Virus record (IMG/VR): IMGVR_UViG_3300037501_000212
Length of the DNA stretch: 64,000 nucleotides
From: a virus
Direction: 5' to 3' (one strand)
In this document: positions 2,226-44,990 of the stretch, piece by piece
Layout of the letters: every line of letters begins with the position of its first letter
How positions within the stretch are numbered: position 1 is the stretch's first letter
Notes under the pieces: model-generated
Told to the model about the DNA's origin: nothing
The model's database searches: none
Seen by the model: the letters and a program-made list of their open reading frames with translations, nothing else
Made by a program: the position numbers and the translations under genes

Positions 2226-2876
2226 CTATCTGACCCTTTCTATCTTCTTCGGTTCTTCTGGCTGCTTGTTTGTCTCACGCTTTCCAAGCCTTGCAGAAAG
2301 GCCATCAAAGTATCCATTCTTGTATCCTTCAAGAATTGCCCACTTGACCCACTTCAAATCTCGCAGCAGTCTGTCGTCACCATCTTCCATGCGCAGTCGG
2401 TCGGTGTAAACGCGCATCAGCGTGCCATAATGATAAATGCACAGAAGATAGAGCTCCCCTTCTTCCTTCAACCAGTTGACATCGCCACCAAAGATGTCTT
2501 TCAGCAGGATGCCATTGAATCGCTTTCCAAGATCAGCCTTTCCACCGAGCACTTCCTCTATGAACTCCTCCTTGCTGCGCATGACAACTTCATATTTGTT
2601 TCCAAGCATTGGATCTATAAAGTCATTGGCCTTTGGGCTTCCAAACCTTTCCCATTCAACCCTGCGCCAGTTGTACTTGTACAAAATGCGCTCAGTTGCT
2701 GGCATTGTGCTCTCATCAAATTCAAAAATGTAGACAGCCTTGCCTTCCTGGCTTGCTTCTGGCATTGCATCAAGGATTTCCTCAATACTGTTGGCTGGTC
2801 CATCAAACATTCCAAACTGGCCTGGCTCATGCTCAATGCCAGCTGCATAAATGACATTCTTCTTAGCCATTGACAT
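2226..2876 (-). CDS. hypothetical protein
   Basis: About 216-aa ORF. A GGAGG lies 6 nt upstream of the third in-frame codon, Met-3 (2876), so that start is preferred over 2882. No motif recognised. Confidence 0.55.
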   Translation of the reverse strand: MSMAKKNVIYAAGIEHEPGQFGMFDGPANSIEEILDAMPEASQEGKAVYIFEFDESTMPATERILYKYNWRRVEWERFGSPKANDFIDPMLGNKYEVVMRSKEEFIEEVLGGKADLGKRFNGILLKDIFGGDVNWLKEEGELYLLCIYHYGTLMRVYTDRLRMEDGDDRLLRDLKWVKWAILEGYKNGYFDGLSARLGKRETNKQPEEPKKIERVR

Positions 2877-3120
2877 TGACATCCTCCACCAGCTCTACAG
2901 GCAACCAGCCACCATCAACATCTTCGTACATCATGCGAGTCCAAGGTGTTCTTGATGGGATGTGGATCCCATTCATCAGCTCTGGCTCAGAATACACGAT
3001 GTACTTGGTTCCAAGAATCACATGGTCACACATCTCAAGCAACCCATCTAAGGTAGCACGCCTTACAAGCTTGACCATTTTGATCGGCCTGCCATTCTTC
3101 CTGTAGTTGGCTTTACCCAT
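2863..3120 (-). CDS. hypothetical protein
   Basis: 85-aa ORF packed between neighbours on the same strand. Confidence 0.45.
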   Translation of the reverse strand: MGKANYRKNGRPIKMVKLVRRATLDGLLEMCDHVILGTKYIVYSEPELMNGIHIPSRTPWTRMMYEDVDGGWLPVELVEDVNVNG

Positions 3121-4624
3121 CCAATTCTCCTTTCAAATACTTCTTCCAGCGCTTGCTGTTCATTGCTTTGGAAAACAGGTCAAGGTTGCGCTTCAATGCT
3201 GCATGCATAGAGACCTCTACTGTGTTATTCGCCAAAAGGTCGTAGTAGAAGCGACTGTCCTTTATTTCACCGCGATGGATTCTCTTCTCACATTGGGAGC
3301 GATTGATTGGGCTGTGATCGTTGCTGAAGAAGATGCAATACCTTGCTACATTCAAGTTGATGCTTGCACCACCACTCAATGGGTGTGCAACCATGACTCT
3401 GAACTTGTCCTCCTTTTCAAACTTCTTGTACTCAGCATACTTGTCCTTGGTGCTTCCATTGAGCACACAATAGAGCACCTTCAGCTTCTTCAGCATTTCA
3501 ATGATGATCTTAGACTCAAGTATGAACTGGTGGAATATGACTATCTTGTGTTCATCAACAACAGATTCTACCAAGTCGTTGAGAAGCTTCAGTTTGGGAT
3601 TGCTCTTGAACAAATAGTTGGTGCTGACAATGATGCCAGAGCAAATTTGTCTGTAAATCATGCTGCTGTTTTCCAAGAAGGTGAATTCACCTTCCTTGTT
3701 GCTTGCATCATCGTAAGCCTTGCGCTGCTCAGAAGAAAGATTGAAGCCAATTACACGATAAACCTTTGGAGGCATGTCCTTTATCTCTGCCTCATTGTAT
3801 CTGATTGCCTTTGTGAACAACTTTGACTCTATTGCTTTCCTGCCATCTCTTGTCACTTTCCAATCTGGGCCAAAGTATCCCCTATCAACAAAATACTTGC
3901 TGCGAAATTCGGTGAATCTTGAGCCATATGTTGATCCATAATCAACGATGTAGTACTGACTCCATATTCCGAGCAAAGACTTCCCGTATGGGGTGCCAGT
4001 CAGAAGAATTCTGACACCAACATCAACTGCAATTCGAGCAGCAATCTTGTAGTTGAGTGTGTCAATGGACTTTATCTTGTGGGCTTCATCAACAATCAGC
4101 GCATCGAATCCAAGATCCATCAGCCTTCGCATTGCAGTTGGATCGTGTGCCATCTTGTTGATTACCTTTTCCTGCCCTTTGACTATCTTTATCCTGCTTG
4201 GCTTGCGAACAGTCAGCATATGCTGAAGGCTCTCATAGTTTGCAACAAAGAAGCCTTTGCCTTCCATGCAACGGAACCTTTGCTCCTTGGTTTCACCAAA
4301 TGAGCCATCTGGTCTGACAGCTATGCAATCCATGTCAGAGTTGAGCTTAATCTCATCAAGCCAGTTACCAACTGCTGATGCAAGACAAATGACAAGAGCT
4401 CTAACAGGTCTTCCCAAGCAGAATTCTATGAACCTTACTGCATCAATGGCAACCTTGGTCTTTCCAGTTCCAAGATCAAGCCAAACATTGAATCCATCTT
4501 CACTGATTGCTGCAATGAATGCAGCCAACTGGTGATCCCATGGTGGCAGCTTGAATTTGAATCCATTCGGAACCATTTCCAGCAGCTGTTTGCGGCTAAG
4601 CTTCTTGAGATCAAAATAGTTCAT
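3113..4624 (-). CDS. SNF2-family DEAD/H helicase
   Basis: Motif I LDLGTGKTKV, motif II LIVDEAHKIK, LLTGTP, and a C-terminal helicase domain (VIFHQF...GGASINL...RIHRGE). Start at MNYFDL (4624) gives an ATGA overlap with the upstream ORF. The ORF track extends it to 4720. Confidence 0.85.
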   Translation of the reverse strand: MNYFDLKKLSRKQLLEMVPNGFKFKLPPWDHQLAAFIAAISEDGFNVWLDLGTGKTKVAIDAVRFIEFCLGRPVRALVICLASAVGNWLDEIKLNSDMDCIAVRPDGSFGETKEQRFRCMEGKGFFVANYESLQHMLTVRKPSRIKIVKGQEKVINKMAHDPTAMRRLMDLGFDALIVDEAHKIKSIDTLNYKIAARIAVDVGVRILLTGTPYGKSLLGIWSQYYIVDYGSTYGSRFTEFRSKYFVDRGYFGPDWKVTRDGRKAIESKLFTKAIRYNEAEIKDMPPKVYRVIGFNLSSEQRKAYDDASNKEGEFTFLENSSMIYRQICSGIIVSTNYLFKSNPKLKLLNDLVESVVDEHKIVIFHQFILESKIIIEMLKKLKVLYCVLNGSTKDKYAEYKKFEKEDKFRVMVAHPLSGGASINLNVARYCIFFSNDHSPINRSQCEKRIHRGEIKDSRFYYDLLANNTVEVSMHAALKRNLDLFSKAMNSKRWKKYLKGELDG

Positions 4625-6443: not shown

Positions 6444-7013
6444 TTATGCGGGACGGACACCTATGTCAATTGGATCGATGCCAACCAGATCCTCCCCCAA
6501 TCTTCCAGATCGAGCTTGCTCAATCAGTTTGGCTTTGGCTGCTTGGGCTGCTTTGATTGAATCAGCAGCTGCCTTCTCAACAGCTTTCTTGTTCAAGATC
6601 GACACCTGCCAGTAACACTGTTCGTATTCTTCTTCAAACTTGGCAATCCAGTGTCCATAAACATGCATGGTGAATTCTGTTGGAACAAGCTGTGCAGTGA
6701 ATGGCACGATCTTGTGCTTGCTCTTGTAATGACTGTGCACAGCTTCAATGTAATCCTCGAACATGTCTTCCCAAGGATTGGTGTGCTCACCACGCATCTC
6801 AATCAACTTAACAATAATCGTCCTCAATATTCGATGATACTTGTTGCTTGGCTGCTTTTGAATATATTGCTGTTTGGTGAATGCATCTGCAAAGAACTTG
6901 CCATCTGTGTAGCGTCTGCGCACCTTGCCATAGATGGCAGCAGCTTTCACTATCCGCTTCTCCCAAAGGTCCCTCTCAGCCTCTGGACTCATGATGCGCT
7001 TTATAACAGCCAT
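6444..7013 (-). CDS. hypothetical protein
   Basis: 189-aa ORF on the same strand. No motif recognised. Confidence 0.5.
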   Translation of the reverse strand: MAVIKRIMSPEAERDLWEKRIVKAAAIYGKVRRRYTDGKFFADAFTKQQYIQKQPSNKYHRILRTIIVKLIEMRGEHTNPWEDMFEDYIEAVHSHYKSKHKIVPFTAQLVPTEFTMHVYGHWIAKFEEEYEQCYWQVSILNKKAVEKAAADSIKAAQAAKAKLIEQARSGRLGEDLVGIDPIDIGVRPA

Positions 7014-7019
7014 GCAAAC

Positions 7020-7247
7020 CTACTTCAAATCTTTCTTCTTGAGTCGCTTCAATGATTTTGTCTTGGTCTTAACAATGTCAACCGAAACAATCTCTGTAAA
7101 ATCAAACAAGCTGCCATCTTTGAGATCTTCCCAAAGCAGCTGCTTGTCTACATCAATGTATTCACCAACAACTTCAGGATCAGTTATCTTTAGAACTATT
7201 TTTAGTTCTTTCATCAGAGGTTGTCTCAATGTAAAATGTAAAAACAA
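7020..7247 (-). CDS. hypothetical protein
   Basis: 75-aa ORF on the same strand. Confidence 0.4.
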   Translation of the reverse strand: MFLHFTLRQPLMKELKIVLKITDPEVVGEYIDVDKQLLWEDLKDGSLFDFTEIVSVDIVKTKTKSLKRLKKKDLK

Positions 7248-7250
7248 AAC

Positions 7251-7589
7251 CTACTTCAAATCGTCTTGGATCATGTGGTTGTTGATGATTTCTCTGATAC
7301 CAGATGCAATTTGGTCGCCCTTGGATTTGATCAAAAAATCCACAACAGGGTTTTGCTCACAAAGCGGAAAGTTGCGATCTTTTGAATTGCTTGCAGTAGA
7401 GAAGTTGCCAATACGTTGCTTGCCACACCACTCGCACCTCAAACTTCCATCTGCTTGAGTTACCCAGCAGTGGCTCTCATAGCGCCACATCTCAAGCTGC
7501 TGTCTCAGCACATTTGCCAAGTCTGCACCTTTGTGCACTACTTTTGGGTCGATCCACATGTTGGCTTGGCTCCTTCCGGAACATTGCAT
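7251..7589 (-). CDS. hypothetical protein
   Basis: 112-aa ORF. Start uncertain because it overlaps the upstream ORF by 52 nt. Confidence 0.4.
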   Translation of the reverse strand: MQCSGRSQANMWIDPKVVHKGADLANVLRQQLEMWRYESHCWVTQADGSLRCEWCGKQRIGNFSTASNSKDRNFPLCEQNPVVDFLIKSKGDQIASGIREIINNHMIQDDLK

Positions 7590-12798: not shown

Positions 12799-13662
12799 GT
12801 GCTGAAAAACAAGATCGCCCTATGTGTTGGAATCAATAACTATCCTGGCATTGACTCAGATTTGTCTGGCTGCGTGAATGATGCCAAGGACTGGTCCGAG
12901 CTGCTAAAGAAAAATGGATTTGTCGTTGGTCTTTTGCTTGACCAGGTGGCAACTCGATCAAATGTTTTGCATCGCTTGCATTCAATGGTAGCTGTGCTGC
13001 AACCAAATGACACCATGGTGTTTACATTCAGTGGGCATGGCACTCAAGTGCCAGATGAGAACAGTGATGAGCCAGATGGGCTGGATGAATGTCTGTGCTG
13101 CTATGACAGCAAGTTTGGTGGTCTTATTTATGATGATGAGATTTGGAAGATCTTCCGCAGCAAGAAGCCTGGTGTGAAGATTGTCATGATCAGCGACTCT
13201 TGTCATTCAGGCACCGTAGCTCGCAAGATGGGTGCAAGACCTTTGCTGCTTGATCCAGACAAGCAAAATGGTCCACCAATTGCTCGAAGAAAGTATGTTC
13301 CGTATCAGGTGCTGGAAATGGCTGGCTGCATGCCAAGAGGTCCTGAGCTGGATCCAGCTGCCAGGCAAATGCTGTCAGAAGAAGGTGGCTGGCTGAAGGA
13401 ATCTGTTGGCTCAGACAAGGTGCCATGGCCTTTGCTTCTTCTATCTGGATGTCAAGACAACGAGTACAGCTACGATGCTGAGATAAACCATCGCCCCAAT
13501 GGTGCTTTGACTGCTTATGCAATCAGCACCTACAACAATCTTCCAAAAGATGTCACCTACCGACAATGGTTCACTGAAATTCGCAGCAAACTGCCAAACT
13601 TATACTATCCACAGACACCTCGCATGGCTGGTTCCTATATTGATACTCCAGCACTCAGCTAA
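12799..13662 (+). CDS. caspase-fold (peptidase C14, metacaspase/orthocaspase-like) protease
   Basis: Catalytic dyad motifs in canonical order, FTFSGHG (His) and ISDSCHSG (Cys). N-terminal LCVGINNYPG...GCVNDA and p10-like LSGCQDNEYSYD...GALTAYA. AGGAGG lies 6 nt before GTG 12799. Confidence 0.85.
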   Translation: MLKNKIALCVGINNYPGIDSDLSGCVNDAKDWSELLKKNGFVVGLLLDQVATRSNVLHRLHSMVAVLQPNDTMVFTFSGHGTQVPDENSDEPDGLDECLCCYDSKFGGLIYDDEIWKIFRSKKPGVKIVMISDSCHSGTVARKMGARPLLLDPDKQNGPPIARRKYVPYQVLEMAGCMPRGPELDPAARQMLSEEGGWLKESVGSDKVPWPLLLLSGCQDNEYSYDAEINHRPNGALTAYAISTYNNLPKDVTYRQWFTEIRSKLPNLYYPQTPRMAGSYIDTPALS

Positions 13663-13673: not shown

Positions 13674-13856
13674 ATGGCAAAGCTAATGATCAAAAAAGCT
13701 CGTACTGCTGCGCAAAAGGCTGCTGCAAAGAAATGGGCTGCAGCTGGTGCTGCCAAGCGCAAGACTGGCAAGAAGATGGGGTTGAAGGAGTACCTCAAAA
13801 GAAGCTCCAAAGGCAACCGCACTGGATACAGTGCTCGCATAGAGGCTTTCTACTGA
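13674..13856 (+). CDS. small Lys/Arg/Ala-rich basic protein
   Basis: 60-aa ORF with a strong RBS (AAGGAGG, 6 nt spacer). Contains KKWAAAGAAKRK, a motif repeated in ORF 15654-15767. Confidence 0.5.
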   Translation: MAKLMIKKARTAAQKAAAKKWAAAGAAKRKTGKKMGLKEYLKRSSKGNRTGYSARIEAFY

Positions 13857-14095: not shown

Positions 14096-14278
14096 TTGGC
14101 TGACATACTTCCATTTCCATCACATGCAGAAGAGCTTGGATTCGGCTACATCATCTGTGGTGAGTGCAAGGGCAGGCACTTTATTGTTGAAGTTGAAGAT
14201 GGTGTCGGCAAATATCATGTCTCAGTCTTGCATTGCACCAAATGTGGTGCTTATCTTGAGTTAGACAAAACCAAATGA
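14096..14278 (+). CDS. zinc-ribbon small protein
   Basis: CGECKG...CTKCG (two CxxC pairs). TTG start 2 nt after the preceding TAA. Its stop overlaps the terL ATG (ATGA). Confidence 0.45.
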   Translation: MADILPFPSHAEELGFGYIICGECKGRHFIVEVEDGVGKYHVSVLHCTKCGAYLELDKTK

Positions 14279-15657
14279 CAGAAAATCCTCCATTGTTGAC
14301 ACCTCGCTGGACTCCTATGAAGGAGCATGATGAGCAAGCTCGTTTGGTTTCGAGTCTTGCCAGATTCCGTGTTGTTCCAGCTGGTCGGCGATCAGGCAAG
14401 ACTGAATTGGTCGGCAAGAGACAAATGATTCAGCGATGCCTGTCATGCCATGATCCAAGCAGTCGTTACTTCCGTCCATTTGCAGATCCTCGCTTTTTTG
14501 TAGCAGCTCCAACTCGTGACCAGGCCAAGAGAATTTATTGGTCTGATTTGAAGGCTTTGACACCTAAGTGGTCCATGTCAAAGGCACCCAACGAGAGCCA
14601 CCTGGTGATCAGCTATATCACTGGTGCAGAGCTGCATGTTTTGGGGATGGATCGGCCAGAGCGTGTAGAAGGTACTCCATGGGATCATGGATTGCTGGAT
14701 GAATATGGCAACATGAAGAAGCAGACATGGGAGGCACATGTTCGGCCTTCCTTGTCTGATCGCAAGGGTGGCTGTGACTTCATTGGTGTGCCAGAAGGTC
14801 GCAACCACTACTACGATTTGTACAAGCGTGCTCAAAAGCGCAAGGCAGAAGCTCTTGCAAAGGGCTTGTATCCAACCTGGGATGTCTTCTGGTGGCCAAG
14901 TCGTGACATTCTCGATTCAGACGAAATAGAGGAAGCTAAGCAAGACCTTGATGAGTTGACATACCAGCAAGAGTATGAAGGAAGTTTCATCAATTTTACA
15001 GGTCGTGCTTACTATGCCTTCCAAGAGCACTTGCACTGCAAGCGAATGTTCTACGACAAGTTCTCAGACTTAATTCTGGCCATGGACTTCAACGTAGCGC
15101 CTGGTGTAGCTGTGATCATGCAGGAGCAGGTCTTGCCAGGCAATCTTGGCTTTACTGGAACTGGTATCATTGGAGAGGTGTACATTCCTCGCAACAGCAA
15201 CACCGAGCTGGTCACTCGGAAGTTCATCACTGATTGGGGAAAGCACAAAGGTCGCATCTTCGTCTATGGTGACTACACTGGTGGAAGTTCCAAGAGCAGC
15301 AGCTTGATGGGCAGCGACTGGGAGATTGTCAAACGCATGCTGCGTGCCCACTTTGATCCAGAGAAGCTGTTCTTCCGCATCAAGCCCAATCCTCGTGAGA
15401 GGGATCGTGTCAATTCTGTTAACAGCCGACTGCTGTCAATGGATGGTCGCATTCGGATGATGGTTGATCCTGGCAAGGCTCCAAATGTTGTCAAGGACTT
15501 TGAAGGTGTCACATTGGTAGAAGGTGGCAGCGGAGAAATTGACAAGAAGGAGAATCCTGATCTTACTCATTTGACAGATGCAATCGGCTACTATGTGTGG
15601 ACCGAATATCCGCTGTCTCGTGTCTGGGAACCTCTTAAAGAAAGGTATTGGAAATGA
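14275..15657 (+). CDS. terL: terminase large subunit
   Basis: Walker A VPAGRRSGKTE and Walker B GLLDEYGNM. C-terminal nuclease-type acidic motifs (LAMDFNVAPG, VYGDYTGG, HLTDAIGYY). 460 aa. Confidence 0.85.
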   Translation: MTENPPLLTPRWTPMKEHDEQARLVSSLARFRVVPAGRRSGKTELVGKRQMIQRCLSCHDPSSRYFRPFADPRFFVAAPTRDQAKRIYWSDLKALTPKWSMSKAPNESHLVISYITGAELHVLGMDRPERVEGTPWDHGLLDEYGNMKKQTWEAHVRPSLSDRKGGCDFIGVPEGRNHYYDLYKRAQKRKAEALAKGLYPTWDVFWWPSRDILDSDEIEEAKQDLDELTYQQEYEGSFINFTGRAYYAFQEHLHCKRMFYDKFSDLILAMDFNVAPGVAVIMQEQVLPGNLGFTGTGIIGEVYIPRNSNTELVTRKFITDWGKHKGRIFVYGDYTGGSSKSSSLMGSDWEIVKRMLRAHFDPEKLFFRIKPNPRERDRVNSVNSRLLSMDGRIRMMVDPGKAPNVVKDFEGVTLVEGGSGEIDKKENPDLTHLTDAIGYYVWTEYPLSRVWEPLKERYWK

Positions 15658-15767
15658 GCAAGCGCAGATCTTATCGAATGACTCAGGCTCGCAAGGAAGC
15701 AACCAAGCGCTGGCAAGCTGCTGGTGCTGCCAAACGCAAGCTTAGCAGTTCTTCCATGTTCGCATAA
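15654..15767 (+). CDS. small basic peptide (paralogous motif to 13674-13856)
   Basis: 37-aa ORF MSKRRSYRMTQARKEATKRWQAAGAAKRKLSSSSMFA. ATGA overlap with the terL stop. Not in the ORF track because it is under 60 aa. Confidence 0.35.
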   Translation: MSKRRSYRMTQARKEATKRWQAAGAAKRKLSSSSMFA

Positions 15768-15875
15768 GTAAGGCATTGGTGCATGGCTATGGCAAGCTGT
15801 CTGGCAAAGCTCGCAATGCAACTGGTCCGAAGAAGTTGAATATCAAGATGGCAAAGGCCAAGCTTTGGGACAAAC

Positions 15876-16250
15876 TTGGGCAATGGTAGGCCAAACACAA
15901 TGGACAGTCCTGTTTGCAAGTTTACAAAGGTTGACAAGCTTTGGGGGCATGAAGAGATCATCGTAAATGATGAGTTCTGCTTCAAGCGTCTTGTTGTCAA
16001 CAAGGGATGGAGAGTCAGCTATCACCACCACAAGATTAAGGATGAGCTGTTCTATCTTGAGAAAGGACTGGTGGTGATTGAACTGAATACGGTGGAATAC
16101 ACACTTGGGCCAGGCCAATGGCTGCGTGTTAGGCCTGGTGACTGGCACTCCTTTGCAGCACTGGCTGATTCGGTGCTGCTTGAAGCCAGCACCCACGATG
16201 ATCCTTCTGACAGCTACAGAGATCCAAGTCGGTTGAGTGGAAGGTGGTAG
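15876..16250 (+). CDS. cupin-domain protein (sugar-phosphate isomerase-like?)
   Basis: WGHEEIIVND...SYHHHKIKDELFYLEKG...PGDWHSF is a typical cupin two-motif pattern. Start uncertain (TTG 15876 or ATG 15900). Confidence 0.6.
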   Translation: MGNGRPNTMDSPVCKFTKVDKLWGHEEIIVNDEFCFKRLVVNKGWRVSYHHHKIKDELFYLEKGLVVIELNTVEYTLGPGQWLRVRPGDWHSFAALADSVLLEASTHDDPSDSYRDPSRLSGRW

Positions 16251-16253
16251 TCT

Positions 16254-16739
16254 GTGTCTTCTGAACACAAAATAATGAAGCTGGCAGAGCTTAGGAAGGC
16301 ATTGGTGCATGTCAGAAAGTATCTTGGCACCATTGTGTTCACCAATGGTTGCTTTGATATTCTGCATGCTGGCCATGTTGATTATTTAGAAAAGGCAAAG
16401 CAGCTTGGTACGGTGCTGGTTGTTGGTGTCAACTGCGACAGATCTGTCAGAAATCTCAAAGGTCCAGCTCGTCCATACACACCGATGGATGAAAGATGCA
16501 GAATCATAGCAGCACTTGCTTGTGTTGACTATGTTACCATCTTCTTCCAGAACACTCCAATGAAGTTGATTGAGCATCTGCGCCCACACATCATCGTAAA
16601 GGGAGATGATTGGAAGGAAGATGGTGTCGCTGGTGCTAAGTTCATAAAGGACTATGGCGGAAAAGTGATTCTTGTTGAGCAGGTGTTCTCAGTTCACACC
16701 ACTGCTTTGATAGAAAGAATTAAGGGTGAAAAGCCTTAG
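16254..16739 (+). CDS. hldC: D-glycero-beta-D-manno-heptose 1-phosphate adenylyltransferase (RfaE domain II type)
   Basis: FTNGCFDILHAGHVDYLEKAKQLG...LVVGVNCDRSVR...KGPARP...ERCRIIAALACVDYV closely follows the HldE C-terminal/HldC cytidylyltransferase-fold signature. It is adjacent to the matching kinase. Confidence 0.85.
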   Translation: MSSEHKIMKLAELRKALVHVRKYLGTIVFTNGCFDILHAGHVDYLEKAKQLGTVLVVGVNCDRSVRNLKGPARPYTPMDERCRIIAALACVDYVTIFFQNTPMKLIEHLRPHIIVKGDDWKEDGVAGAKFIKDYGGKVILVEQVFSVHTTALIERIKGEKP

Positions 16740-17598
16740 ACCAAAGATCCTTGTGATAGGTGATCTAATCATAGACGAATATGTCTATGGGGATTGCCAC
16801 CGCATCAGCCCAGAGGCACCAGTGCCTGTTGTCAGTGAGACTCGTCGGTTCATCACCCAGGGAGGCGCTGGGAATGTCGCTGAGAATCTCAAGGCATTGG
16901 GAGCAGAGGTTACATTCTGGTATGGTGAAAAGAGCAGCCACAAGATGCGTATTGTAGCTGGCCATCAGCATGTGGTGCGATTGGACAAGGATGACCTGAC
17001 AGAGGTGCCTTCTCCTGGTATGCTTGAGGACTGGGTCTACTATGTTGACTTGGTTGTTGTAAGTGACTATTGCAAGGGTGTTGTTACGGAGGAGATGCTT
17101 GAACTGCTGAATGAGTATTGTTCGATATATGGCAAGCCACTGATGGTGGATCCATACAATGGTCGCTGCAACTATGGTGCTGCAGTCACTTTGATAAAGC
17201 CTAATCGCTACGAGTGCCAATCTGTGACTGGCATCAAAATTGTTGACAACACAAGTTTGCACGAGTCTGCCCAAAAATATCTGCAGATGTCTAAAGCCAA
17301 GCATTTGGTTGTTACATTGGGTGCTGAAGGCATGGTTTTGTTCTATTCGGACAACAAAGTTGAACCATACCATTCCAGATGTGAGCCAAGACAAATATTC
17401 GATGTGACTGGAGCTGGTGACACAGCCATGGCAACACTGGCATACATATGGGCGTTGCCTGAAGGTGGTAAACTGAGCAAGCGCTCTTCGGTTGATTGGG
17501 CTGCAAAAGCAGCCAGCTTGGCTGTGGAGAAGCTTGGTACATCTGTAATTGGCTACAAAGAGCTGTTTGGTGAAAATTTTAACAACAAGGAGAAATAG
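16726..17598 (+). CDS. hldA: D-glycero-beta-D-manno-heptose 7-phosphate kinase (RfaE domain I, pfkB family)
   Basis: ILVIGDLIIDEYVYGDCHRISPEAPVPVV...GGAGNVAENLKALG and DVTGAGDT (pfkB motif) are typical of the HldE N-terminal/HldA kinase. It overlaps hldC. Confidence 0.85.
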   Translation: MKSLRPKILVIGDLIIDEYVYGDCHRISPEAPVPVVSETRRFITQGGAGNVAENLKALGAEVTFWYGEKSSHKMRIVAGHQHVVRLDKDDLTEVPSPGMLEDWVYYVDLVVVSDYCKGVVTEEMLELLNEYCSIYGKPLMVDPYNGRCNYGAAVTLIKPNRYECQSVTGIKIVDNTSLHESAQKYLQMSKAKHLVVTLGAEGMVLFYSDNKVEPYHSRCEPRQIFDVTGAGDTAMATLAYIWALPEGGKLSKRSSVDWAAKAASLAVEKLGTSVIGYKELFGENFNNKEK

Positions 17599-17600: not shown

Positions 17601-19166
17601 ATGCCTACTGCAACCCAAGAAGGTGCTGTTGTAATCGACATGGTGGACAAGCTTTTTACAGATTCAGAACAGGACAAGTCCACATTGGAGAAAAAGCATG
17701 CACTGTATCTTGAGAACATAGAGAACTGGAATTTCTTGCTGGCTTGCTATGAAGGTGCAGAGGCCATGCGCAAGCTGGGATTGCTCTTCCAAAATGAAAG
17801 GGAATCAGACAAGAATTACCAGCGCAGGCTGAAGGAGCTGTACACCTTCAACTACAGTCGCAGCGTGGTTGATCTATTTAACTTCTACCAGTTCAAGTCA
17901 CCTATCCGACGCCAGCTGGCTTCTCTTGGGAATCATCCTGATTGGGAAGACTTTGAGAAGGATTGCAATCGGGATGGTGACAACCTTGACAACTTCATGA
18001 TGGAGCAGTCCAAGATGGCCGACATCCATGGACATGTTGGCATCTTGGTTGACAGACCAAAGGGAGATTTCCAGACAGCTGCAGATGCTCTTGGAAAGTG
18101 GCCATACTTTTGTGCATACCTTCCGCAAAACATACTGGATTGGGAGTTTGAAAGGGACGAAAGTGGTCGCAGAGTGCTGGTCTACATCAAGCTGCTGGAT
18201 GATGAAGGCAAATATCGGCTGTGGTTCCTTGACCACTGGGAGATATGGGAAATCCAAAAGGAGGAAGGCAGTGGTACAGAAAGGGCTGTGCTGCTGGAGT
18301 CAGCTGTCAATCCTCTTGGAGAGATTCCATTTGTTTGGCTGTACTGCAACAAGAGCACCAAGCGAGAGATTGGCAAGAGCGACATTGCCGACATTGCCAA
18401 GATTGATGCAAGCATCATGCGAAACTTGTCCCAGATGGAAGAGATCATCAACTTCGCAGCCTTTCCGATGATGCGGAAGCCTTACAAAGAGCATGGCCAG
18501 ACAGAGCAGCCGGATGATGCTGGTGTTACAGCTGTGCTTGGCTTTGATCCAACCATGCCTGAGTCTAAGCCTGATTGGCTTGAGGCAGCTGTAGAAGGTC
18601 CGATAAATGCCATCCGTGAATTTTTGATGAAGAAGATTGAGGAAATATATCGTGCCAGCAATGCAGGTGGCTTGGCAGCTACAGAGATCCAAGGTCAGGC
18701 CAAAAGTGGTGTGGCTCTTCGCACCGAGTTCCAACTGCTGAATGGAAAGTTGATAAAGAAGTCTGAGAATGTTGTCAAGGCCGAGCGCATGTTGCTTTAC
18801 TTCTGGTGCTTGTGGGTTGGAATTCCAGAGGCTTGGGATGAGGTCAAGATCGAAAGGCCAAGAACTTTTGAGATTGAAGACTTGGCTACCGATTTGAACA
18901 ATGTGCTCACTGCCAAGACCATCGTTGTCAGCAAGACATTTGATGCTGAGTTGCAGAAGATGGTTGTGCGCTTGATGCTGCAAACAGCTGATGATGAGAC
19001 AATCACGACCATCGATGAGGAAATTGAGGAAGCCATTGAGCATAATGAATTGCTTGGATATGGCGAAGGTCTGGAAGGCTACATGAATGGCATGGGTCTG
19101 ACAGAAGAAGATCTTGCAGCTGCAGATCAGATGCCAGAGGAGGAAGAAGCTGAAGAGGAGGTGTGA
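17601..19166 (+). CDS. portal protein
   Basis: 521 aa with an AAGGAG RBS, in the packaging module and followed by a MuF-type protein. Very acidic C-terminus. The call rests on position and size; no family motif was identified. Confidence 0.65.
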   Translation: MPTATQEGAVVIDMVDKLFTDSEQDKSTLEKKHALYLENIENWNFLLACYEGAEAMRKLGLLFQNERESDKNYQRRLKELYTFNYSRSVVDLFNFYQFKSPIRRQLASLGNHPDWEDFEKDCNRDGDNLDNFMMEQSKMADIHGHVGILVDRPKGDFQTAADALGKWPYFCAYLPQNILDWEFERDESGRRVLVYIKLLDDEGKYRLWFLDHWEIWEIQKEEGSGTERAVLLESAVNPLGEIPFVWLYCNKSTKREIGKSDIADIAKIDASIMRNLSQMEEIINFAAFPMMRKPYKEHGQTEQPDDAGVTAVLGFDPTMPESKPDWLEAAVEGPINAIREFLMKKIEEIYRASNAGGLAATEIQGQAKSGVALRTEFQLLNGKLIKKSENVVKAERMLLYFWCLWVGIPEAWDEVKIERPRTFEIEDLATDLNNVLTAKTIVVSKTFDAELQKMVVRLMLQTADDETITTIDEEIEEAIEHNELLGYGEGLEGYMNGMGLTEEDLAAADQMPEEEEAEEEV

Positions 19167-36199: not shown

Positions 36200-39103
36200 A
36201 TGAAAGTAGAGAAGATGCTCCAAAGAGAGATATCCACACTTCCGATGGATGTCCGCTCCCGCACGGACTGTGAGAATGTGGCTGTCTTGTTGCAATTTGC
36301 TGATGGAACTTACCACCATATATTGCCATCCCACGCTGTATCAAAAGCAATCATTGAAGCCTGCGCAGAGCACATTGGTGCAGCTGATATCATCATCAAA
36401 GCTGAGAATGCAGCCTGCAAGCACCATGATGATTTTGCCAAAACTGTTGCCACACATGTTGCTGCGGACGAGTTGCCAGATGCTGTGATCTTCAAGAACA
36501 GACAAGCAATTGGTGACATTCTCTGCATGACTGGTGCTGTGCGTGACTTCAAGAATGCTTATCCAAATGTGCGCGTCAATGTCATCACCACAGCAATGCA
36601 TATTTGGGATCACAATCCAGCCCTTGACAGATCGCTGAACGACCATTCGAAAATTCTTGAAGTTGGCCCAGGCTTTGGCACAAATCGTAGCAATGCTTGG
36701 AACATAAATCTGATTGATGCTTTTCGGATGGACTTCGAGAACAAGCTGAAGGTCAGGATAGAAAAAGGTCCTGTCAGGCCTGACATTTGGATGACAAAGG
36801 AAGAATACGAAAGGCCACCTATCATCGAAGGTCCGTATTGGATCATCATCAATGGCGGAGAACCTGGTTGGCCATCAAAGCAGTATCCATACTGGCAGGA
36901 AGTTGTTGATCAGCTGTCTGGAAAGATCAAGTTTGTGCAGCTTGGTCTAAAAGGACATCCTTGGCCTTTGCTTGATGGTGTTGTCAACATGGTTGGAAAG
37001 ACCGAGGATCGCAACACTGGCATACGAGACATGTTCAACTTGTTTTTGCATGCACAAGGCTCCATCGGTCTTGTCTCGATGCACATGCATCTCTCGGCTG
37101 CATTCGGGAATCCATGTGTTGTTGTTGCTGGCGCTAGGGAGCCTGCATGGTTCACCCAGTACTTCGGCCACCAATATCTGCAGACAAACGGAACCTTGCG
37201 CTGTGGGCTGCACACTGCTTGCTGGAAGTGCAAGATAGAAGGTTGCCAATACCATGCAGAGGCTCCTCGCAAACAGATCAAGGGCAAGGATGGCAACCTT
37301 CTGCCAGTGCCAAAGTGTGTTGACATAATCAGTCCTGATGAAGTTGTTGATGCTGTGCTGAAGTACTACCAGGGTGGCAGGTTGGAGTTTGGCAAAAAGG
37401 TTCCGAACAAATTCTTCTCGAACATTGCCAAAGCTCCTTCTACTGTTGTTTCTGTTCCTAGAGCAGCAGAGGCTTCCAAGGAAGACAATGACTTTGTAAC
37501 CAGTGCTGGATTCACTTGGGGTGGTGGATCATTGACCGACAGAGACTGGGTCTTCATCAAAGGGCTGTTGAAGGCTTACGATGTCAAGACTGTGTTGGAG
37601 TTTGGTGCTGGCCTTAGCACGTTGCTTTTTCAGAGAGAGGTTGACAGGGTGATATCCTACGAGACTTCTCCAGGATGGATCAAGAAAATTAGCTCTTTGA
37701 TTGATCCCAATCGTGGCAGAGTGCTGCATTGGAATGGTGAGTACTTCAAGATGGTTGGGATGCAGTGCGACCTTGCCTTTGTGGATGGTCCATCTGGTGG
37801 GCAAAGCAGGGAGTTCTCAACAAAGATTTCATCAGAGCTTGCAGATCTTGTTGTCGTGCATGATGCAGGAAGAGGTCCAGAGAAAGAGTGGCAGCAGAAA
37901 TACTTGGCTGAAGAGTTTGATATGATCAGCAAGGGCGGCCATCGCTGCCATTTCTGGGTCAGAAAGGACAGTGCCAAGAATCCCCACAGAAACAAACCAA
38001 GCCAACTTGTGGCTGCTCCTTTGAGGATAGAAAATCCTGCTGCAAGAGCTCCTGATGTTGGTCTTGCAATGGATGCTGGCTGCGACCTTGAAGACGAAAG
38101 TGTTAAGACAGCCATCATGATTACTACCTGCAGAGGATATGGTGGCAGTGAGCGCAGCAGCATACAATTGATGCGGATGTTGCAAGAGCAAGGATATGAG
38201 GTGTATTTGTGTCCGACCGGAAACATCAGTGGCGAGTACAGAGCTAACATACCAGCTGGTGTCATTGTGATGAATTGGGAACAGCTGAAGGAAGCTGCTG
38301 TTGATCTGGTTGTTTTTTACACATCTGACACAATATGGGGATTCAAGGAGCAGCGCTATTGTGAGGTGATGCCTACCATACTTGCTGATCGCAAGGTGAT
38401 GGTGCTCAACTATCAGCTGGGTGGTGCAGGAATTGTTCCTTGGACAATCGGGTGGGATCTGTACATGTTTCTGAACACCACCAAGGAGAAGGAATTCTTG
38501 GCACTTGCTCCTGGCTCTAACACAAAGGTGCTTGCTCCTGCAACTGACTTGACCAAGTTCTTTGAAGTGGTGCCAGATTACAACAGCAACTTGCGCTTGA
38601 TAAGGCACAGCTCGCAAGGTGATGCCAAACACCCAGACTACACAAACGACATGATCCTTGACATACTTGGGATCTATCCTGGCACCGAGTTCTACTTCAT
38701 GCCGGCTCGGTCAGACTGCATGGAACATCCTGCAGTCCATCGCCACCGCAAGAATGTGCCACCAGTGTACGAGTTTCTTTCTCTTGGCAACTGCTTCTTC
38801 TACCATTTGCCTCCAGGCTACCAGGATCAAGGGCCCAAGGTGATATGTGAGGCAATGGCAGCTGGTCTTCCGGTGATTGCAGACAATAGATATGGTGCAA
38901 AAGACAGAGTCACACCAGACACTGGCTGGCTTATAAACTCTCCTGATGAAATACCTGCAATCATCCGTGAAATAAAGGACAATCCTGGCTTGCTTGAGAA
39001 GAAGGGCAAGGCTGCTCGTGAAAGAGCCAAGCAGTTATTTGTTATGGAACGCTGGATTGATGCAATCGTTGGAGAAGAGGTCAATGCGCAGCAGCTATCA
39101 TGA
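36200..39103 (+). CDS. three-domain enzyme: GT9 heptosyltransferase-like + class-I methyltransferase-like + GT4 glycosyltransferase
   Basis: Start at MKVEK with an AAAGAGGAG RBS. About 36480-37370: GT9-like (IGDILCMTGAVRDFKNAYPNVRVNVI; WPSKQYPYWQEVVDQLSGKIKFVQLG; IGLVSMHMHLSAAFGNPCVVVAG; CWKCKIEGC). About 37500-37960: VLEFGAGLST...DLAFVDGP. About 38100-39100: GGSERS...KVICEAMAAGLPVIA (GT-B/GT4). Confidence 0.75.
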   Translation: MKVEKMLQREISTLPMDVRSRTDCENVAVLLQFADGTYHHILPSHAVSKAIIEACAEHIGAADIIIKAENAACKHHDDFAKTVATHVAADELPDAVIFKNRQAIGDILCMTGAVRDFKNAYPNVRVNVITTAMHIWDHNPALDRSLNDHSKILEVGPGFGTNRSNAWNINLIDAFRMDFENKLKVRIEKGPVRPDIWMTKEEYERPPIIEGPYWIIINGGEPGWPSKQYPYWQEVVDQLSGKIKFVQLGLKGHPWPLLDGVVNMVGKTEDRNTGIRDMFNLFLHAQGSIGLVSMHMHLSAAFGNPCVVVAGAREPAWFTQYFGHQYLQTNGTLRCGLHTACWKCKIEGCQYHAEAPRKQIKGKDGNLLPVPKCVDIISPDEVVDAVLKYYQGGRLEFGKKVPNKFFSNIAKAPSTVVSVPRAAEASKEDNDFVTSAGFTWGGGSLTDRDWVFIKGLLKAYDVKTVLEFGAGLSTLLFQREVDRVISYETSPGWIKKISSLIDPNRGRVLHWNGEYFKMVGMQCDLAFVDGPSGGQSREFSTKISSELADLVVVHDAGRGPEKEWQQKYLAEEFDMISKGGHRCHFWVRKDSAKNPHRNKPSQLVAAPLRIENPAARAPDVGLAMDAGCDLEDESVKTAIMITTCRGYGGSERSSIQLMRMLQEQGYEVYLCPTGNISGEYRANIPAGVIVMNWEQLKEAAVDLVVFYTSDTIWGFKEQRYCEVMPTILADRKVMVLNYQLGGAGIVPWTIGWDLYMFLNTTKEKEFLALAPGSNTKVLAPATDLTKFFEVVPDYNSNLRLIRHSSQGDAKHPDYTNDMILDILGIYPGTEFYFMPARSDCMEHPAVHRHRKNVPPVYEFLSLGNCFFYHLPPGYQDQGPKVICEAMAAGLPVIADNRYGAKDRVTPDTGWLINSPDEIPAIIREIKDNPGLLEKKGKAARERAKQLFVMERWIDAIVGEEVNAQQLS

Positions 39104-39677
39104 AAACAACTACGGAGCAGTGCTGCAGACTGCAGTTCGTACAACAGCTCCGAATGTCATTGTAGAGCTTGGTGTTCTGGATGGCTACAGCACTCTGCAT
39201 CTTGCGCGTGGTGCAAAGTGGCTTACGGAAAACAAGGGAATGTGCTCGCACCTATTCTCTTTCGACCTGTTTGATGATTACAAGTACAAGCATGGTGACA
39301 AGGAAAAGGTGCAAGCAATGCTTGAGCAGAAGAAGGTAGCCAACTTCGTAACTCTTGAGAAGGGCGATGCCTTCCATGTTCACAGCAAGTTTGGCGATGA
39401 CTCGGTTGGATTGCTGCACATTGACATCAGCAACGATGGCAATGTGGTGTGCGAGCTGCTGAAGCTGTGGTGCTCCAAGCTGAAGCAAACTGGTGGATGG
39501 GTTCTTCTTGAAGGAGGATCAAAGGAGAGGGATTGCATCCCATGGATGCAGAGGTACAGCAAACGCAAGATAGGCGAGGCTTTCTGTGAAGAGTTTGTCT
39601 TGAAAAACTTCACTCCTCCGATGGTTCTCCAAAAGTTCCCTTCCATGACAGTGCTTCAAAAAAGGAGCAAACCATGA
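39084..39677 (+). CDS. class I SAM-dependent methyltransferase
   Basis: VIVELGVLDGYSTLHLA (motif I) and LLHIDISND. Start ATG 39084 overlaps the previous gene by 20 nt. Confidence 0.65.
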   Translation: MRSSYHENNYGAVLQTAVRTTAPNVIVELGVLDGYSTLHLARGAKWLTENKGMCSHLFSFDLFDDYKYKHGDKEKVQAMLEQKKVANFVTLEKGDAFHVHSKFGDDSVGLLHIDISNDGNVVCELLKLWCSKLKQTGGWVLLEGGSKERDCIPWMQRYSKRKIGEAFCEEFVLKNFTPPMVLQKFPSMTVLQKRSKP

Positions 39678-40351
39678 CAATCAACGCTGGCAAGTTGGTA
39701 AAACTGTCTTACAAAAACATCACAGATGCAGTTGATTCATTTCATGAATTCTATGAGATGAACAAGTTGTGGGAGAAGACCACATGGCTTGGGCAGCAGA
39801 TGTGGAAGCTGCCATTTGATGCAATCGTGCTGCAGGAGATCATATATGCTACCAAGCCTGATCTTGTAATAGAGACAGGCACTGGCATGGGTGGCTCAGC
39901 GCTATTCTATGCAAGCATCTTGCACTTGCTTGACAATGGAATGGTGCTGACAATAGATGAGAAGCGCAAATTCCACAATTTTGGTGATACAACTGCAGCC
40001 AATCGCATCAACTTCATAGAAGGATCCAGCATTGCAGACAAAACGCTGGAGCATGTGAGACGCATTGCATCTGGCAGGCGCTGCATGGTTATACTTGACT
40101 CTTGGCACACCTTTGAACATGTGCAGAAGGAGCTGGAGGCTTACAAGGAGTTTGTCTCGCTCGGCTGCTACATGGTTGTGGAAGACACCCATGTCAATGG
40201 CCACCCAGTGCAATGGGAATGGGGTGCTGGTCCATACGAGGCTGTGCAGCATTTCATCGAGAAATATCCAGGAGTGTTTGTGGTTGACAAACAGAGGGAG
40301 CGCCACATGATGACATTCAACCCTTCTGGATATCTGAGGAGGATGATATGA
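39674..40351 (+). CDS. CmcI/cephalosporin-hydroxylase-family methyltransferase (sugar O-methyltransferase type)
   Basis: WLGQQMWKLPFDAIVLQEIIYATKPDLVIETGTGMGGSALFYA...ILDSWHTFEHV...VVEDTHVNGHPV follows the CmcI family pattern. Confidence 0.75.
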   Translation: MTINAGKLVKLSYKNITDAVDSFHEFYEMNKLWEKTTWLGQQMWKLPFDAIVLQEIIYATKPDLVIETGTGMGGSALFYASILHLLDNGMVLTIDEKRKFHNFGDTTAANRINFIEGSSIADKTLEHVRRIASGRRCMVILDSWHTFEHVQKELEAYKEFVSLGCYMVVEDTHVNGHPVQWEWGAGPYEAVQHFIEKYPGVFVVDKQRERHMMTFNPSGYLRRMI

Positions 40352-41445: not shown

Positions 41446-41930
41446 TGTTTTCAGCTTGGCGAAACAGGTTGCTGCTTGACTATGCACAGTGGATCATAGA
41501 CCACCCACTTACAAGAGAGATGGGTGCTCCAATTGATGGAGAAGGTCCAGTCTATTTTTCTGCAATTGATGATTCTGAGATAGAAATTTGCAAGGCTCTT
41601 TGGGAAGGCAATGACTACTTGCGCATTCCTCCACCCAGAAGGATTTGGAACAGCCAATTCTGCAATGACTTTGACAAGTGGCGCGATGCATTCTGGAGAA
41701 TGGCAAATGCATTGGCAGATGGGGTTGAAAGGATACACACAGAAGGCATTGACAAGTTCCACTTGCCAGTGTTTGGCAGAGGTATTCAGCTGGTGCTTGC
41801 TGCTCAAGCAGTGCAGCTCAAAAGCGTAACAGTGGGGTGCTACAAATTCCCGTACGCAGTTGAACAGTTTTTGGAATATGCCATTCGCAGGCCAGAAATA
41901 TCTTACATCAAGGAGGTGTTGGTATGGTAG
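41439..41930 (+). CDS. hypothetical protein
   Basis: 163-aa ORF overlapping both neighbours within the sugar island. Confidence 0.5.
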   Translation: MVMFSAWRNRLLLDYAQWIIDHPLTREMGAPIDGEGPVYFSAIDDSEIEICKALWEGNDYLRIPPPRRIWNSQFCNDFDKWRDAFWRMANALADGVERIHTEGIDKFHLPVFGRGIQLVLAAQAVQLKSVTVGCYKFPYAVEQFLEYAIRRPEISYIKEVLVW

Positions 41931-44510: not shown

Positions 44511-44989
44511 CAAGAGTGCAGGAGCTTAGGCAGCTTCTGCTTACTATATTGGAAACAGCCTTCCAGGAGAATGGTGATGTTGTCGCCAAGCAGCAGCTTG
44601 GTGTCAGTGTCTCAAATGCCATAAAGAAGGATGGTGGTGTTCTTGTCATACAGAACCAGAATGTTGAGGTGTATGCAAGGATAGTGCCGTCAATGGTAAA
44701 GGCCATACGCATCTGTGACATGATTGATGAGCAACCAATCAAGCTGCTGCCAACACCAATGTCAGAGCCAACTGTTGTTGATTCTGTAGCTGGCGACCCT
44801 GTGGATGATTGCTGCAAATATTTGCTAAGCAAAGGCACCAAATGGGAGGATATGCAAGAAATAGTGAAGTCAAGATATCTTAAGCATGTTGTAGAAATGG
44901 CTGGCAAGAAATCAGAAGCTGCTAAATGGCTTGGGATTGGCCCAACATACATTTGCAAGCTGCTAAAACAACACAATGGAGGAAGCTAA
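44495..44989 (+). CDS. protein with a C-terminal Fis-type HTH (HTH_8)
   Basis: The C-terminus RYLKHVVEMAGKKSEAAKWLGIGPTYICKLLKQH matches the Fis/NtrC-type HTH pattern. Confidence 0.5.
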   Translation: MVGEITRVQELRQLLLTILETAFQENGDVVAKQQLGVSVSNAIKKDGGVLVIQNQNVEVYARIVPSMVKAIRICDMIDEQPIKLLPTPMSEPTVVDSVAGDPVDDCCKYLLSKGTKWEDMQEIVKSRYLKHVVEMAGKKSEAAKWLGIGPTYICKLLKQHNGGS

Positions 44990-44990
44990 A

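Follow-up and report, generated by a model that had tools for sequence, protein, structure and literature searches.

The locus described here raises the question of why a phage would carry genes resembling those of bacterial heptose synthesis among its head-packaging genes. Adenosine diphosphate (ADP)-heptose is the building block of the Gram-negative lipopolysaccharide (LPS) core and, through ALPK1, which senses it, a potent agonist of innate immunity; the heptose pathway, and especially GmhA, serves as a target for antibiotics. The DNA analysed is a 64,000-nucleotide (nt) stretch of the virus record IMGVR_UViG_3300037501_000212 (hereafter the window, whose numbering is used for all positions). 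Between the genes for the large terminase subunit (terL) and the portal protein it holds three tightly packed open reading frames (ORFs) on the + strand, encoding a cupin, an HldC-type nucleotidyltransferase and an HldA-type kinase, all three where a preliminary description of the sequence had placed a set of ADP-heptose synthesis genes:

14275–15657, + strand: large terminase subunit, left flank (Pfam Terminase_6N, E 1.2e-6)
15900–16250, + strand (ORF from TTG 15876): cupin, 116 amino acids (aa) (Pfam Cupin_2)
16254–16739, + strand: HldC-type nucleotidyltransferase, 161 aa (TIGR02199 rfaE_dom_II)
16726–17598, + strand: HldA-type PfkB kinase, 290 aa, GTG start (TIGR02198 rfaE_dom_I)
17601–19166, + strand: portal protein, right flank (phrog_145 'portal protein', E 4.6e-67)

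The explanation that I consider likely is that these genes form a heptose module with a cupin isomerase, the product of which would be consumed by a GT9-type glycosyltransferase encoded further downstream. In the proposed route, a metal-dependent cupin isomerase would convert sedoheptulose-7-phosphate to the 7-phosphate of D-glycero-D-manno-heptose, in place of the SIS-fold GmhA (step 1). The HldA-type PfkB kinase, an assignment made by family, would then phosphorylate C1 to give the beta-1,7-bisphosphate (step 2). A GmhB or HAD phosphatase of the host, invoked because the phage encodes none, would take off the 7-phosphate (step 3), for which many other viruses have a GmhB or a minimal HAD protein of their own, and the HldC-type nucleotidyltransferase, likewise placed by family, would yield nucleoside diphosphate (NDP)-heptose (step 4). 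This sugar would most likely be used by the GT9 domain of a 967-aa GT9-methyltransferase-GT4 enzyme, which together with methyltransferases, an aminotransferase and a short-chain dehydrogenase/reductase (SDR) would build a modified heptose-containing glycan.

The kinase and the nucleotidyltransferase

The nucleotidyltransferase matches rfaE_dom_II with an E-value of 8.6e-54 and 181.3 bits, over profile positions 6–143 of 144, and also matches phrog_7878. It contains the motif FTNGCFDILHAGH quoted in the preliminary description, and its segment TNGCFDILHAGH, aligned to TNGVFDILHAGH of E. coli HldE, carries the (H/T)xGH motif of nucleotidyltransferases. HxGH, RP and KGDD(W/Y) (KGDDW in the window) are common to this protein, E. 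coli HldE and archaeal HldC. At the terminus the motif is a variant, VFSVHTT in the window protein as against FEDGCSTT in E. coli HldE, with His for Ser and no Arg at position 5. According to a commentary on Tang et al. 2024 (PMC11573728), an Arg at position 5 of this STTR5 motif marks nucleotidyltransferases that are promiscuous for nucleoside triphosphates; since it is absent here, ADP would be the default nucleotide, and ADP-heptose may tentatively be taken as the default product of the enzyme.

The kinase matches rfaE_dom_I in two stretches (E 2.5e-65, 220.7 bits) and contains the motifs GGAGNVA and DVTGAGD. It was aligned with the kinase domain of E. coli HldE, with two HldA of archaea and with further phage kinases (alignment A2; seven sequences, four of them from phages), in which GD..D, RISPEAPV, GGAxN, SDYxKG, PN and DVxGAGDT are invariant, all being present in the window kinase. 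A stretch of about 29 aa (A2 columns 77–105), found in E. coli (L175 hldE) and in the archaeal enzymes, is missing from all four phage kinases (those of the window, of the contigs L001 and L003, and of P-SSM2), which makes the window kinase shorter by that length than cellular HldA and HldE. Judged by this alignment, the phage HldA-type kinases are a minimised form of the kinase. A Logan gene call that starts the window kinase at 16822 (258 aa) was rejected; it removes the conserved ILVIGD...RISPEAPVPV block, and for this reason the 290-aa reading is the right one.

Set against the bacterial ADP-heptose pathway, the phage has the same two families (TIGR02198 and TIGR02199), encoded as separate proteins as is reportedly the case for the Burkholderia-type HldA and HldC, the same predicted product, and a GT9-type transferase as its predicted user. 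It differs in having a ~115-aa cupin in the place of the SIS-fold GmhA, and in having no GmhB. The gene order, transferase then kinase, is also the reverse of the domain order of HldE.

One could read the two proteins instead as a generic PfkB sugar kinase and a cytidylyltransferase-fold enzyme of another pathway, for example a ribose or a TagD-like CDP-alcohol route. That both lie at or below the curated NCBIfam RfaE cutoffs speaks for this and against heptose: the HldC-type protein is 0.2 bits under its cutoff of 181.5, and the kinase, with 220.7 bits, is below a cutoff of 345 and lacks the ~29 aa of its cellular counterparts. The kinase shortfall is, however, explained by that same deletion. 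Moreover, the next unrelated model for the HldC-type protein, that of glycerol-3-phosphate cytidylyltransferase in the TagD family, reaches 52 bits against 181.3, and the ribokinase model reaches 60 bits for the kinase, for which rfaE_dom_I scores 3.7 times higher, so that RfaE domain I and II models fit three to four times better in bits than any other family does, and the identities first given to both proteins hold. In many genomes the gene pair clusters with true GmhB, HldD-like SDR and canonical GT9 heptosyltransferase genes, and viral enzyme sets are described as having synthesised ADP-heptose in vitro (commentaries PMC11573728 and PMC11461863). I regard a pathway unrelated to heptose as very improbable.

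According to the same two commentaries, Tang et al. (Science, 2024) established that functional heptose kinases and nucleotidyltransferases occur in viruses as well as in archaea, and that enzyme sets from each kingdom examined, viruses included, made ADP-heptose in vitro (PMC11573728, PMC11461863). The viral enzymes of that survey are said to have been found by homology to four known enzyme types (PMC11461863). Phage heptose kinases and transferases are already known, and the trio is a known type in an unusual position. The commentaries on Tang et al. mention no cupin isomerase, whereas a cupin is present in 46 of the 58 viral loci with both HldA and HldC counted below.

The cupin as candidate isomerase

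No GmhA and no GmhB were recognised in the preliminary description, which offered host supply or a substitution of the isomerase by the cupin as explanations. Searches of the window with the E. coli proteins (phmmer --max and tblastn) gave no GmhA match better than E 0.2 and no GmhB match, and no SIS or HAD family was present in Pfam scans and precomputed Pfam annotation of ~96% of the ~87-kb genome, comprising the window ORFs and 20 of the 23 kb outside it (this coverage excludes ~3.4 kb between ThyX and DnaE and window positions 27.3–33.3 kb). The absence is borne out over that share of the genome.

The start of the cupin gene is more likely ATG 15900 than TTG 15876, since the public gene call P0001, which is 100% identical, begins there and the N-termini of homologs agree with it. 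The protein scores 34.9 bits against Pfam Cupin_2 (cutoff 27.2), and belongs to a family of ~3,200 clusters at 50% identity (exhaustive profile search, E ≤ 1e-10). Across 20 cupin sequences, residues K13, W15, G16, E18, H42, H44, K47, E49, H83, E95, S97, T98, D104, S105 and R107 are invariant. These include the metal ligands His-x-His...Glu...His and the Lys between them (HxHxxKxE; H42, H44, K47, E49, H83), which align with residues of the D-lyxose ketol-isomerase 2Y0O. An AlphaFold2 (AF2) model of the cupin has a pLDDT of 93.9, and its top Foldseek matches in the PDB are the minimal cupin phosphomannose isomerases (PMIs) of Thermococcus, 7ZVY and 7ZVM (E 3e-7, TM 0.75). A sequence-profile search discriminates better than Foldseek: its near-full-domain matches are 2Y0O (E 1.8e-9), the D-lyxose/D-mannose isomerase 7NZO and the Thermococcus PMIs, whereas quercetinases match at the core motif only.

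The residues common to the cupin and 2Y0O are N23, C27, K29, HxHxxKxE, H83, E95, S97, T98 and D104. With the cupin isomerases in general (2Y0O and 7NZO of PF07385, the type II PMIs of PF01050, 7ZVY and 7ZVM) the phage protein has in common the fold, the metal site, HxHxxKxE and further residues, and the D-lyxose/D-mannose isomerases and PMIs turn manno-configured aldoses into ketoses, which corresponds to the GmhA reaction both in its chemistry and in the stereochemistry that it requires. On the other hand, it is much shorter than the D-lyxose isomerases, has a family-specific C-terminal DSYR motif, and its proposed substrate is a seven-carbon sugar phosphate. The window cupin has no PF01050 match in the Pfam scan, but PF01050 or PF07385 is matched by its relatives and, in the HldA-cupin fusions described below, by the cupin half. 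The designation of this family as cysteine dioxygenase (RefSeq, and phrog_7851 in PHROGs) was rejected, with no cysteine dioxygenase family of Pfam matching at E ≤ 0.01 and the Glu ligand E49 invariant; the metal site of cysteine dioxygenase is a 3-His one, without the cupin Glu.

Over 557 contigs of viruses, and 270 contigs from species-representative genomes, have a relative of the cupin. Gene counts were made for the 80 best loci in each set and for 80 viral loci anchored on the kinase (240 loci in total):

Cupin-anchored viral loci (n = 80): HldC 57, HldA 48, ~110-aa HAD 46, GmhA 1
Cupin-anchored cellular loci (n = 80): HldC 44, HldA 51, true GmhB 38 (E 1e-24 to 1e-39), GmhA 2
Kinase-anchored viral loci (n = 80): cupin 46, GmhA 6, both 0, neither 28
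Kinase-anchored viral loci with HldC (n = 58): cupin 46, GmhA 3, both 0, neither 9 (mostly short contigs)

In most of the 240 loci the cupin gene adjoins HldA and HldC on the same strand, often with GmhB or a minimal HAD protein (mini-HAD) and an HldD-like SDR. Cupin and HldA share the strand in 48 of 48 viral and 51 of 51 cellular cases, at median gaps of 331 and 839 nt. The cellular loci belong mostly to DPANN archaea, Candidate Phyla Radiation (CPR) bacteria, Bdellovibrionota, Dependentiae and Planctomycetota. A typical archaeal operon consists of cupin, HldD-like SDR, HldA, GmhB and HldC, followed by a GT2 or a canonical GT9 (PF01075, E 4.7e-33), and thereby has a recognisable enzyme for every pathway step except the isomerase. 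The cellular loci also include 16 HldA-cupin fusion ORFs and three cupin-HldA-HldC fusions. The protein database holds at least 120 further clusters of ~435-aa HldA-cupin fusions (the best-scoring among the matches listed), most of whose cupin halves match PF01050 and/or PF07385; their source names are only 'cupin domain-containing protein', 'PfkB family carbohydrate kinase' or 'rfaE kinase chain'.

The counts of kinase-anchored viral loci further show that cupin and GmhA exclude each other (Fisher one-sided P = 0.0045 over the 80 loci, a value that overstates independence because the loci are phylogenetically related). In the six loci with GmhA, this gene lies beside the kinase, on the same strand and at a gap of 0–399 nt, which is the position held elsewhere by the cupin. 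In GenBank, 27 of 31 HldA-bearing phage records carry the cupin (all of cyanophages or marine virus genomes), and none of these 27 has a GmhA anywhere in the record.

Two further arrangements were observed in this survey. Many viral contigs (L176–L255, e.g. L187 9995–12956) encode consecutively an HldE-like fusion of kinase and transferase, a short HldD-like SDR, the cupin, and a GmhB of the true, E. coli-like type. The related phage-like contig L003 (3599–9603) has genes for a GT4, a methyltransferase, a GT1, the cupin, the kinase, a GFO/IDH/MocA oxidoreductase, a hexapeptide acetyltransferase and a DegT protein, with no HldC nearby; this gene content suggests an acetamido-heptose variant of the pathway. 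The heptosamine enzymes of septacidin were considered as a model for the tailoring genes of this contig and of the window, and set aside, as the oxidase there is a GMC enzyme acting after transfer and the analogy is generic only.

The alternative to be weighed is that kinase and transferase make NDP-heptose from heptose-7-phosphate supplied by a host GmhA, and that the cupin is a downstream sugar modifier (an epimerase or keto-isomerase resembling RmlC, FdtA/QdtA or CapF, or a Pac13-like dehydratase) or an unrelated metalloenzyme such as cysteine dioxygenase, as phrog_7851 is labelled. Cupins are functionally promiscuous. Foldseek matches at E ~1e-6 also comprise KdgF, the CapF cupin domain, Pac13 and oxalate decarboxylase, and there are weak profile matches to QdtA (E 0.005) and RmlC-like proteins (E 0.05). 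Yet it is to the kinase, which would use the isomerase product, that the cupin is fused in 16 of the 80 cellular loci, and no fusion to an SDR, an aminotransferase or a glycosyltransferase was seen among the loci and fusions examined. The cupin also stays with the kinase where HldC is missing (L257, L258, L003), it does not co-occur with GmhA in the kinase-anchored viral loci, and in the five-gene viral and archaeal clusters the other steps all have a recognisable enzyme. Finally, no cysteine dioxygenase or FdtA family of Pfam matches at E 0.01, and the family retains the His/His/Glu/His site along with D-lyxose-isomerase-specific residues, which RmlC and FdtA enzymes are not known to need. 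A downstream or unrelated role for the cupin is on this evidence unlikely.

Several points nonetheless count against an isomerase. The window cupin scores below the cutoff of Lyx_isomer (PF07385), with 17.9 against 20.8 bits, and hundreds of cupins with other functions score similarly in Foldseek. A GmhA-like gene does occur near the cupin in two of the 80 cellular loci (more than 6 kb away, within 8 kb), a co-occurrence that also favours the alternative just described, and the cellular GmhA counts are at the level of the locus and not of the whole genome. The absence of GmhA and GmhB from the phage itself holds for ~96% of its genome, with ~3.4 kb outside the sequence covered, and no 7-phosphatase for step 3 is encoded in the covered part. 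All the functional steps rest on homology and gene context. Taking together context, fusions, exclusivity and isomerase-like residues, I favour with moderate confidence the reading of the cupin as a sedoheptulose-7-phosphate isomerase. The earlier suggestion that it substitutes for GmhA has in this way gained strong comparative-genomic support (linkage, fusions, exclusivity and the residues common with 2Y0O), its catalytic activity being a prediction.

The phosphatase step and the cyanophage clusters

Within the window, the four ~110-aa mini-HAD proteins of cyanophages gave no match when used as queries. The Metallophos protein at 60195–61160 was set aside as a candidate phosphatase, since it pairs with an AAA_23 protein (60195–62150 for the pair, − strand) and the two resemble an SbcCD/Mre11-Rad50 nuclease.

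In the cyanophages P-SSM2, S-CAM1 and S-SM2, the cupin adjoins a gene annotated as 'phosphoheptose isomerase' (RefSeq; phrog_1238 in PHROGs), which would seem to contradict the isomerase reading of the cupin. The annotated proteins are:

L091 6676–7020: ~110-aa 'phosphoheptose isomerase' (PSSM2_311, P-SSM2)
L092 5026–5337 and 6667–6996: two ~110-aa proteins of the same name (S-SM2)
L093 6673–6996: ~110-aa protein of the same name (S-CAM1)

This label was rejected: the proteins have no SIS match, weak HAD_PNKP matches and all four HAD motifs (DIDGTIC, YxTAR, GKP and IDDKG), and are for these reasons interpreted as a minimal HAD phosphatase, analogous to GmhB. With the neighbour a HAD phosphatase, the apparent contradiction is resolved. 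The cyanophage cupin beside it is itself labelled 'cysteine dioxygenase' or 'putative nucleotidyltransferase'.

The T4-like cyanophages (P-SSM2, genes PSSM2_309-313; S-CAM1, S-SM2, S-SSM7 and others) have in common with the window the HldC, PfkB kinase and cupin families, at 30–45% identity, to which they add a short HldD-like SDR and the HAD phosphatase of ~110 aa. Their heptose clusters adjoin tail-fibre genes (P-SSM2, S-CAM1) and do not lie in a packaging module, and the window phage, with its genome of ~87 kb and SU10-type capsid, is unrelated to them. The cyanophage heptose genes are already documented, and have been read as host-derived, LPS-related auxiliary metabolic genes (PMC7378029). 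The common marine-phage module comprises HldC, HldA, HAD and cupin plus the short HldD-like SDR, that is five genes for five steps, provided that the cupin is the isomerase.

Viruses have been reported to lack the phosphatase, according to a commentary on Tang et al. (PMC11461863). The presence of GmhB or the mini-HAD in 27 of the 58 viral loci with HldA and HldC, together with the true GmhB genes in viral contigs, contradicts this. In the library searched, no paper was found to link a cupin to sedoheptulose-7-phosphate isomerase; a related idea in the papers on actinobacterial tridomain isomerase/kinase/transferase enzymes, in which the isomerase domain is reportedly GmhA-like, is possible. 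The proposed replacement of GmhA by a cupin would seem to have gone unnoticed as a variant of this much-studied pathway, and the corrections to the cyanophage HAD and cupin labels likewise appear not to have been recognised before.

If thousands of lineages do rely on a cupin for the GmhA step, heptose producers among viruses, DPANN and CPR would be undercounted by surveys that look for GmhA homologs, GmhA inhibitors would miss cupin-bearing organisms, and phage annotations would be wrong for both the cupin ('cysteine dioxygenase') and the HAD protein ('phosphoheptose isomerase').

The proposed consumer and the setting of the locus

Beyond the head genes, the window encodes a large glycosyltransferase followed by a cassette of sugar-tailoring genes, which lie between a Phage-tail_3 protein and fibre-like Gly_rich_2 glycine-rich proteins:

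36200–39103, + strand: 967-aa tri-domain enzyme with a GT9-like domain (~96–354), a class-I methyltransferase-like middle and a GT4 C-terminus (Pfam, hhalign)
39084–51008, + strand: sugar-tailoring cassette between tail and fibre genes (Pfam/NCBIfam)
39084–39677, 39674–40351 (CmcI/rhamnosyl O-methyltransferase type), 41924–42577 and 49504–50052, + strand: Methyltransf_24 genes
40348–41445, + strand: DegT aminotransferase (PseC/DegT-like)
47838–48803, + strand: SDR epimerase/dehydratase (best NCBIfam matches dTDP-glucose 4,6-dehydratase at 86.6 bits and ADP-heptose 6-epimerase at 66.9 bits, neither anywhere near its cutoff)
50049–51008, + strand: radical SAM protein

The preliminary description had named a GT9-like domain at 36200–39103 as the destination of the ADP-heptose. 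The domain is there but divergent: in Pfam the window protein itself matches only Glycos_transf_1 (GT4) at its C-terminus, with no PF01075 match at E ≤ 0.01 and a faint match to TIGR02201 (E 0.0015). The family to which it belongs comprises 341 proteins (E ≤ 0.001; those listed are 44–63% identical), and bears at JGI the COG-based name 'ADP-heptose:LPS heptosyltransferase'. PF01075 is matched by eight of 24 homologs (best E 2.1e-7), and an hhalign comparison of the family with WaaF, WaaC and archaeal GT9 gave a probability of 85.5% (E 5.7e-6) over 239 columns, covering the whole fold and both signature motifs. A sequence-profile search of the PDB with the family gave no GT9 structure at E ≤ 1, so that the GT9 homology rests on the Pfam matches of the relatives and on hhalign; a methyltransferase-like PDB match spans profile positions 410–504. 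A whole-chain Foldseek search was dominated by the GT4 half and by the capsule-polymer multienzyme 8QOY, and did not resolve the GT9 domain. No hydrophobic or membrane segment was found in the enzyme, which is predicted to be soluble.

Gene neighbourhood provides the link to the heptose genes. On the phage contig L050 a homologous tri-domain enzyme lies 2 kb from an HldA-cupin fusion and an HldC, homologs of the GT9 domain occur beside the heptose modules of L013 and L037, and a WaaF-like GT9 is present in 33 of the 80 cellular cupin loci. On this basis the 967-aa enzyme is the likely consumer of NDP-heptose. No second sugar nucleotidyltransferase was found in Pfam over ~96% of the genome (window 27.3–33.3 kb lying outside the scan); as HldC is the only one found, the tailoring enzymes may, speculatively, act on the heptose itself. 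The cassette, which also holds about nine ORFs without a family match, would possibly modify either the heptose or a second sugar.

The GT9-like domain is directly followed by an invariant Cys cluster (C335, C341, C349 and C373; P0021 residues 335–373), and the archaeal GT9 of L096 has a similar Cys-rich C-terminal stretch. BAHT enzymes, which are related to GT9 and include TibC and Aah, reportedly heptosylate proteins and are said to have an iron finger. By analogy, the Cys cluster of the tri-domain enzyme may be a metal finger like that of TibC-type enzymes.

As to purpose, the heptose could instead go into a remodelling of the host's envelope during infection (of its LPS, capsule or S-layer, for instance to block superinfection or the adsorption of progeny to debris) or into a polymer that is free or secreted. 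LPS cores are the classical substrates of GT9 enzymes, and the best whole-chain structural match of the tri-domain enzyme is the capsule-polymer multienzyme; the cyanophage heptose genes have also long been read as host-derived LPS genes (PMC7378029). Against this stand three observations, none of them decisive: glycosyltransferase and tailoring cassette are inside the tail/fibre module, the clusters of P-SSM2 and S-CAM1 adjoin tail-fibre genes, and the predicted soluble enzyme has no membrane segment. A role at the host envelope is a real possibility, though not the one I prefer; that the glycan is on the virion is itself only tentatively proposed. Virions of mycobacteriophages are glycosylated by phage-encoded glycosyltransferases, and the window phage likewise encodes soluble glycosyltransferases in its structural module.

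For the wider picture I lean only slightly in favour, as it joins several proposals: that the cupins form a new family replacing GmhA, that this family is the usual first enzyme of the pathway in viruses, DPANN, CPR and Bdellovibrionota and is often fused to the kinase, that the mini-HAD completes a route from the pentose-phosphate pool to ADP-heptose in many phages, and that in the present phage a methylated heptose glycan would be placed on tail or fibre proteins by the GT9-methyltransferase-GT4 enzyme. A complete or near-complete heptose route in a head-packaging operon, along with a GT9-containing enzyme in the tail module, offers a concrete case for the question of how phages use heptose, which the 2024 literature explicitly leaves open.

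Returning to the position of the trio, the spacing is 242 nt between terL and the cupin gene, 3 nt between the cupin gene and hldC, and 2 nt between hldA and the portal gene, with hldC and hldA overlapping by 14 nt. Counts of promoter- and terminator-like sites around the trio are at or below the expectation from shuffled sequence and as such uninformative. Because of the overlap and the 2–3-nt gaps before the portal gene, and as neither a promoter nor a terminator of its own was recognised, the trio is probably co-transcribed with the head genes; its late expression is a more tentative proposal. The GC content and GC3 match those of the flanking genes and give no support for a recent horizontal acquisition, and for these reasons combined the trio is not marked as a separate or recent unit.

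The insertion is conserved in relatives. In six independent contigs (L001, L256–L260) terL is 76–83% identical to that of the window and has the cupin gene directly downstream, followed by the kinase and then the portal gene wherever the sequence continues (the portals of L001, L257 and L258 are 70–74% identical to that of the window). HldC lies within the terL-portal gap only in the window, L001 and L256, while L257 and L258 retain cupin and kinase without it; HldC is dispensable in this insertion in close relatives. The more distant L002 (terL 54%) has other cargo in the gap, including a caspase-like protein (6680–7549). From these contents of the gap, the terL-portal junction is taken to be a cargo site in this phage group, with the cupin-kinase pair as its conserved core. 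In L258 the cupin and kinase genes are directly adjacent, L257 has a 101-aa ORF without assigned family (1149–1454) at the position of HldC, and in L258–L260 a conserved 117-aa ORF without assigned family precedes the cupin gene; the L258 genes concerned lie at 1990–2343 and 2354–3636.

Both ends of the window map to one 35.8-kb assembly contig, implying for the genome a circular map of ~87.2 kb. The genes beyond the window include a DnaE-type polymerase, RecA, DnaB, an SNF2 helicase and ThyX; the polymerase product, just beyond the window end (L008), also bears a UDG domain match. The capsid is of SU10 type and the small terminase belongs to Terminase_2. By DNA, the nearest GenBank phage matches at 71% over a terL fragment only, and there is no annotated close relative.

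Some minor features of the packaging module were also noted. A 55-nt direct repeat (71% identity) lies on either side of terL, at 13716–13770 and 15693–15747, each copy within a small basic ORF (13674–13856 and 15655–15768) encoding ...K(K/R)W(A/Q)AAGAAKRK.... The second of these ORFs (37 aa) overlaps the terL stop and occupies part of the spacer between terL and the cupin gene. A caspase-like Peptidase_C14 protein is encoded between the small terminase gene and terL (12799–13662, E 6e-27); with homologs in the terL-portal gap of L002 and at 2375–3205 in L256, it counts as mobile cargo, of an unusual kind, in this phage group.

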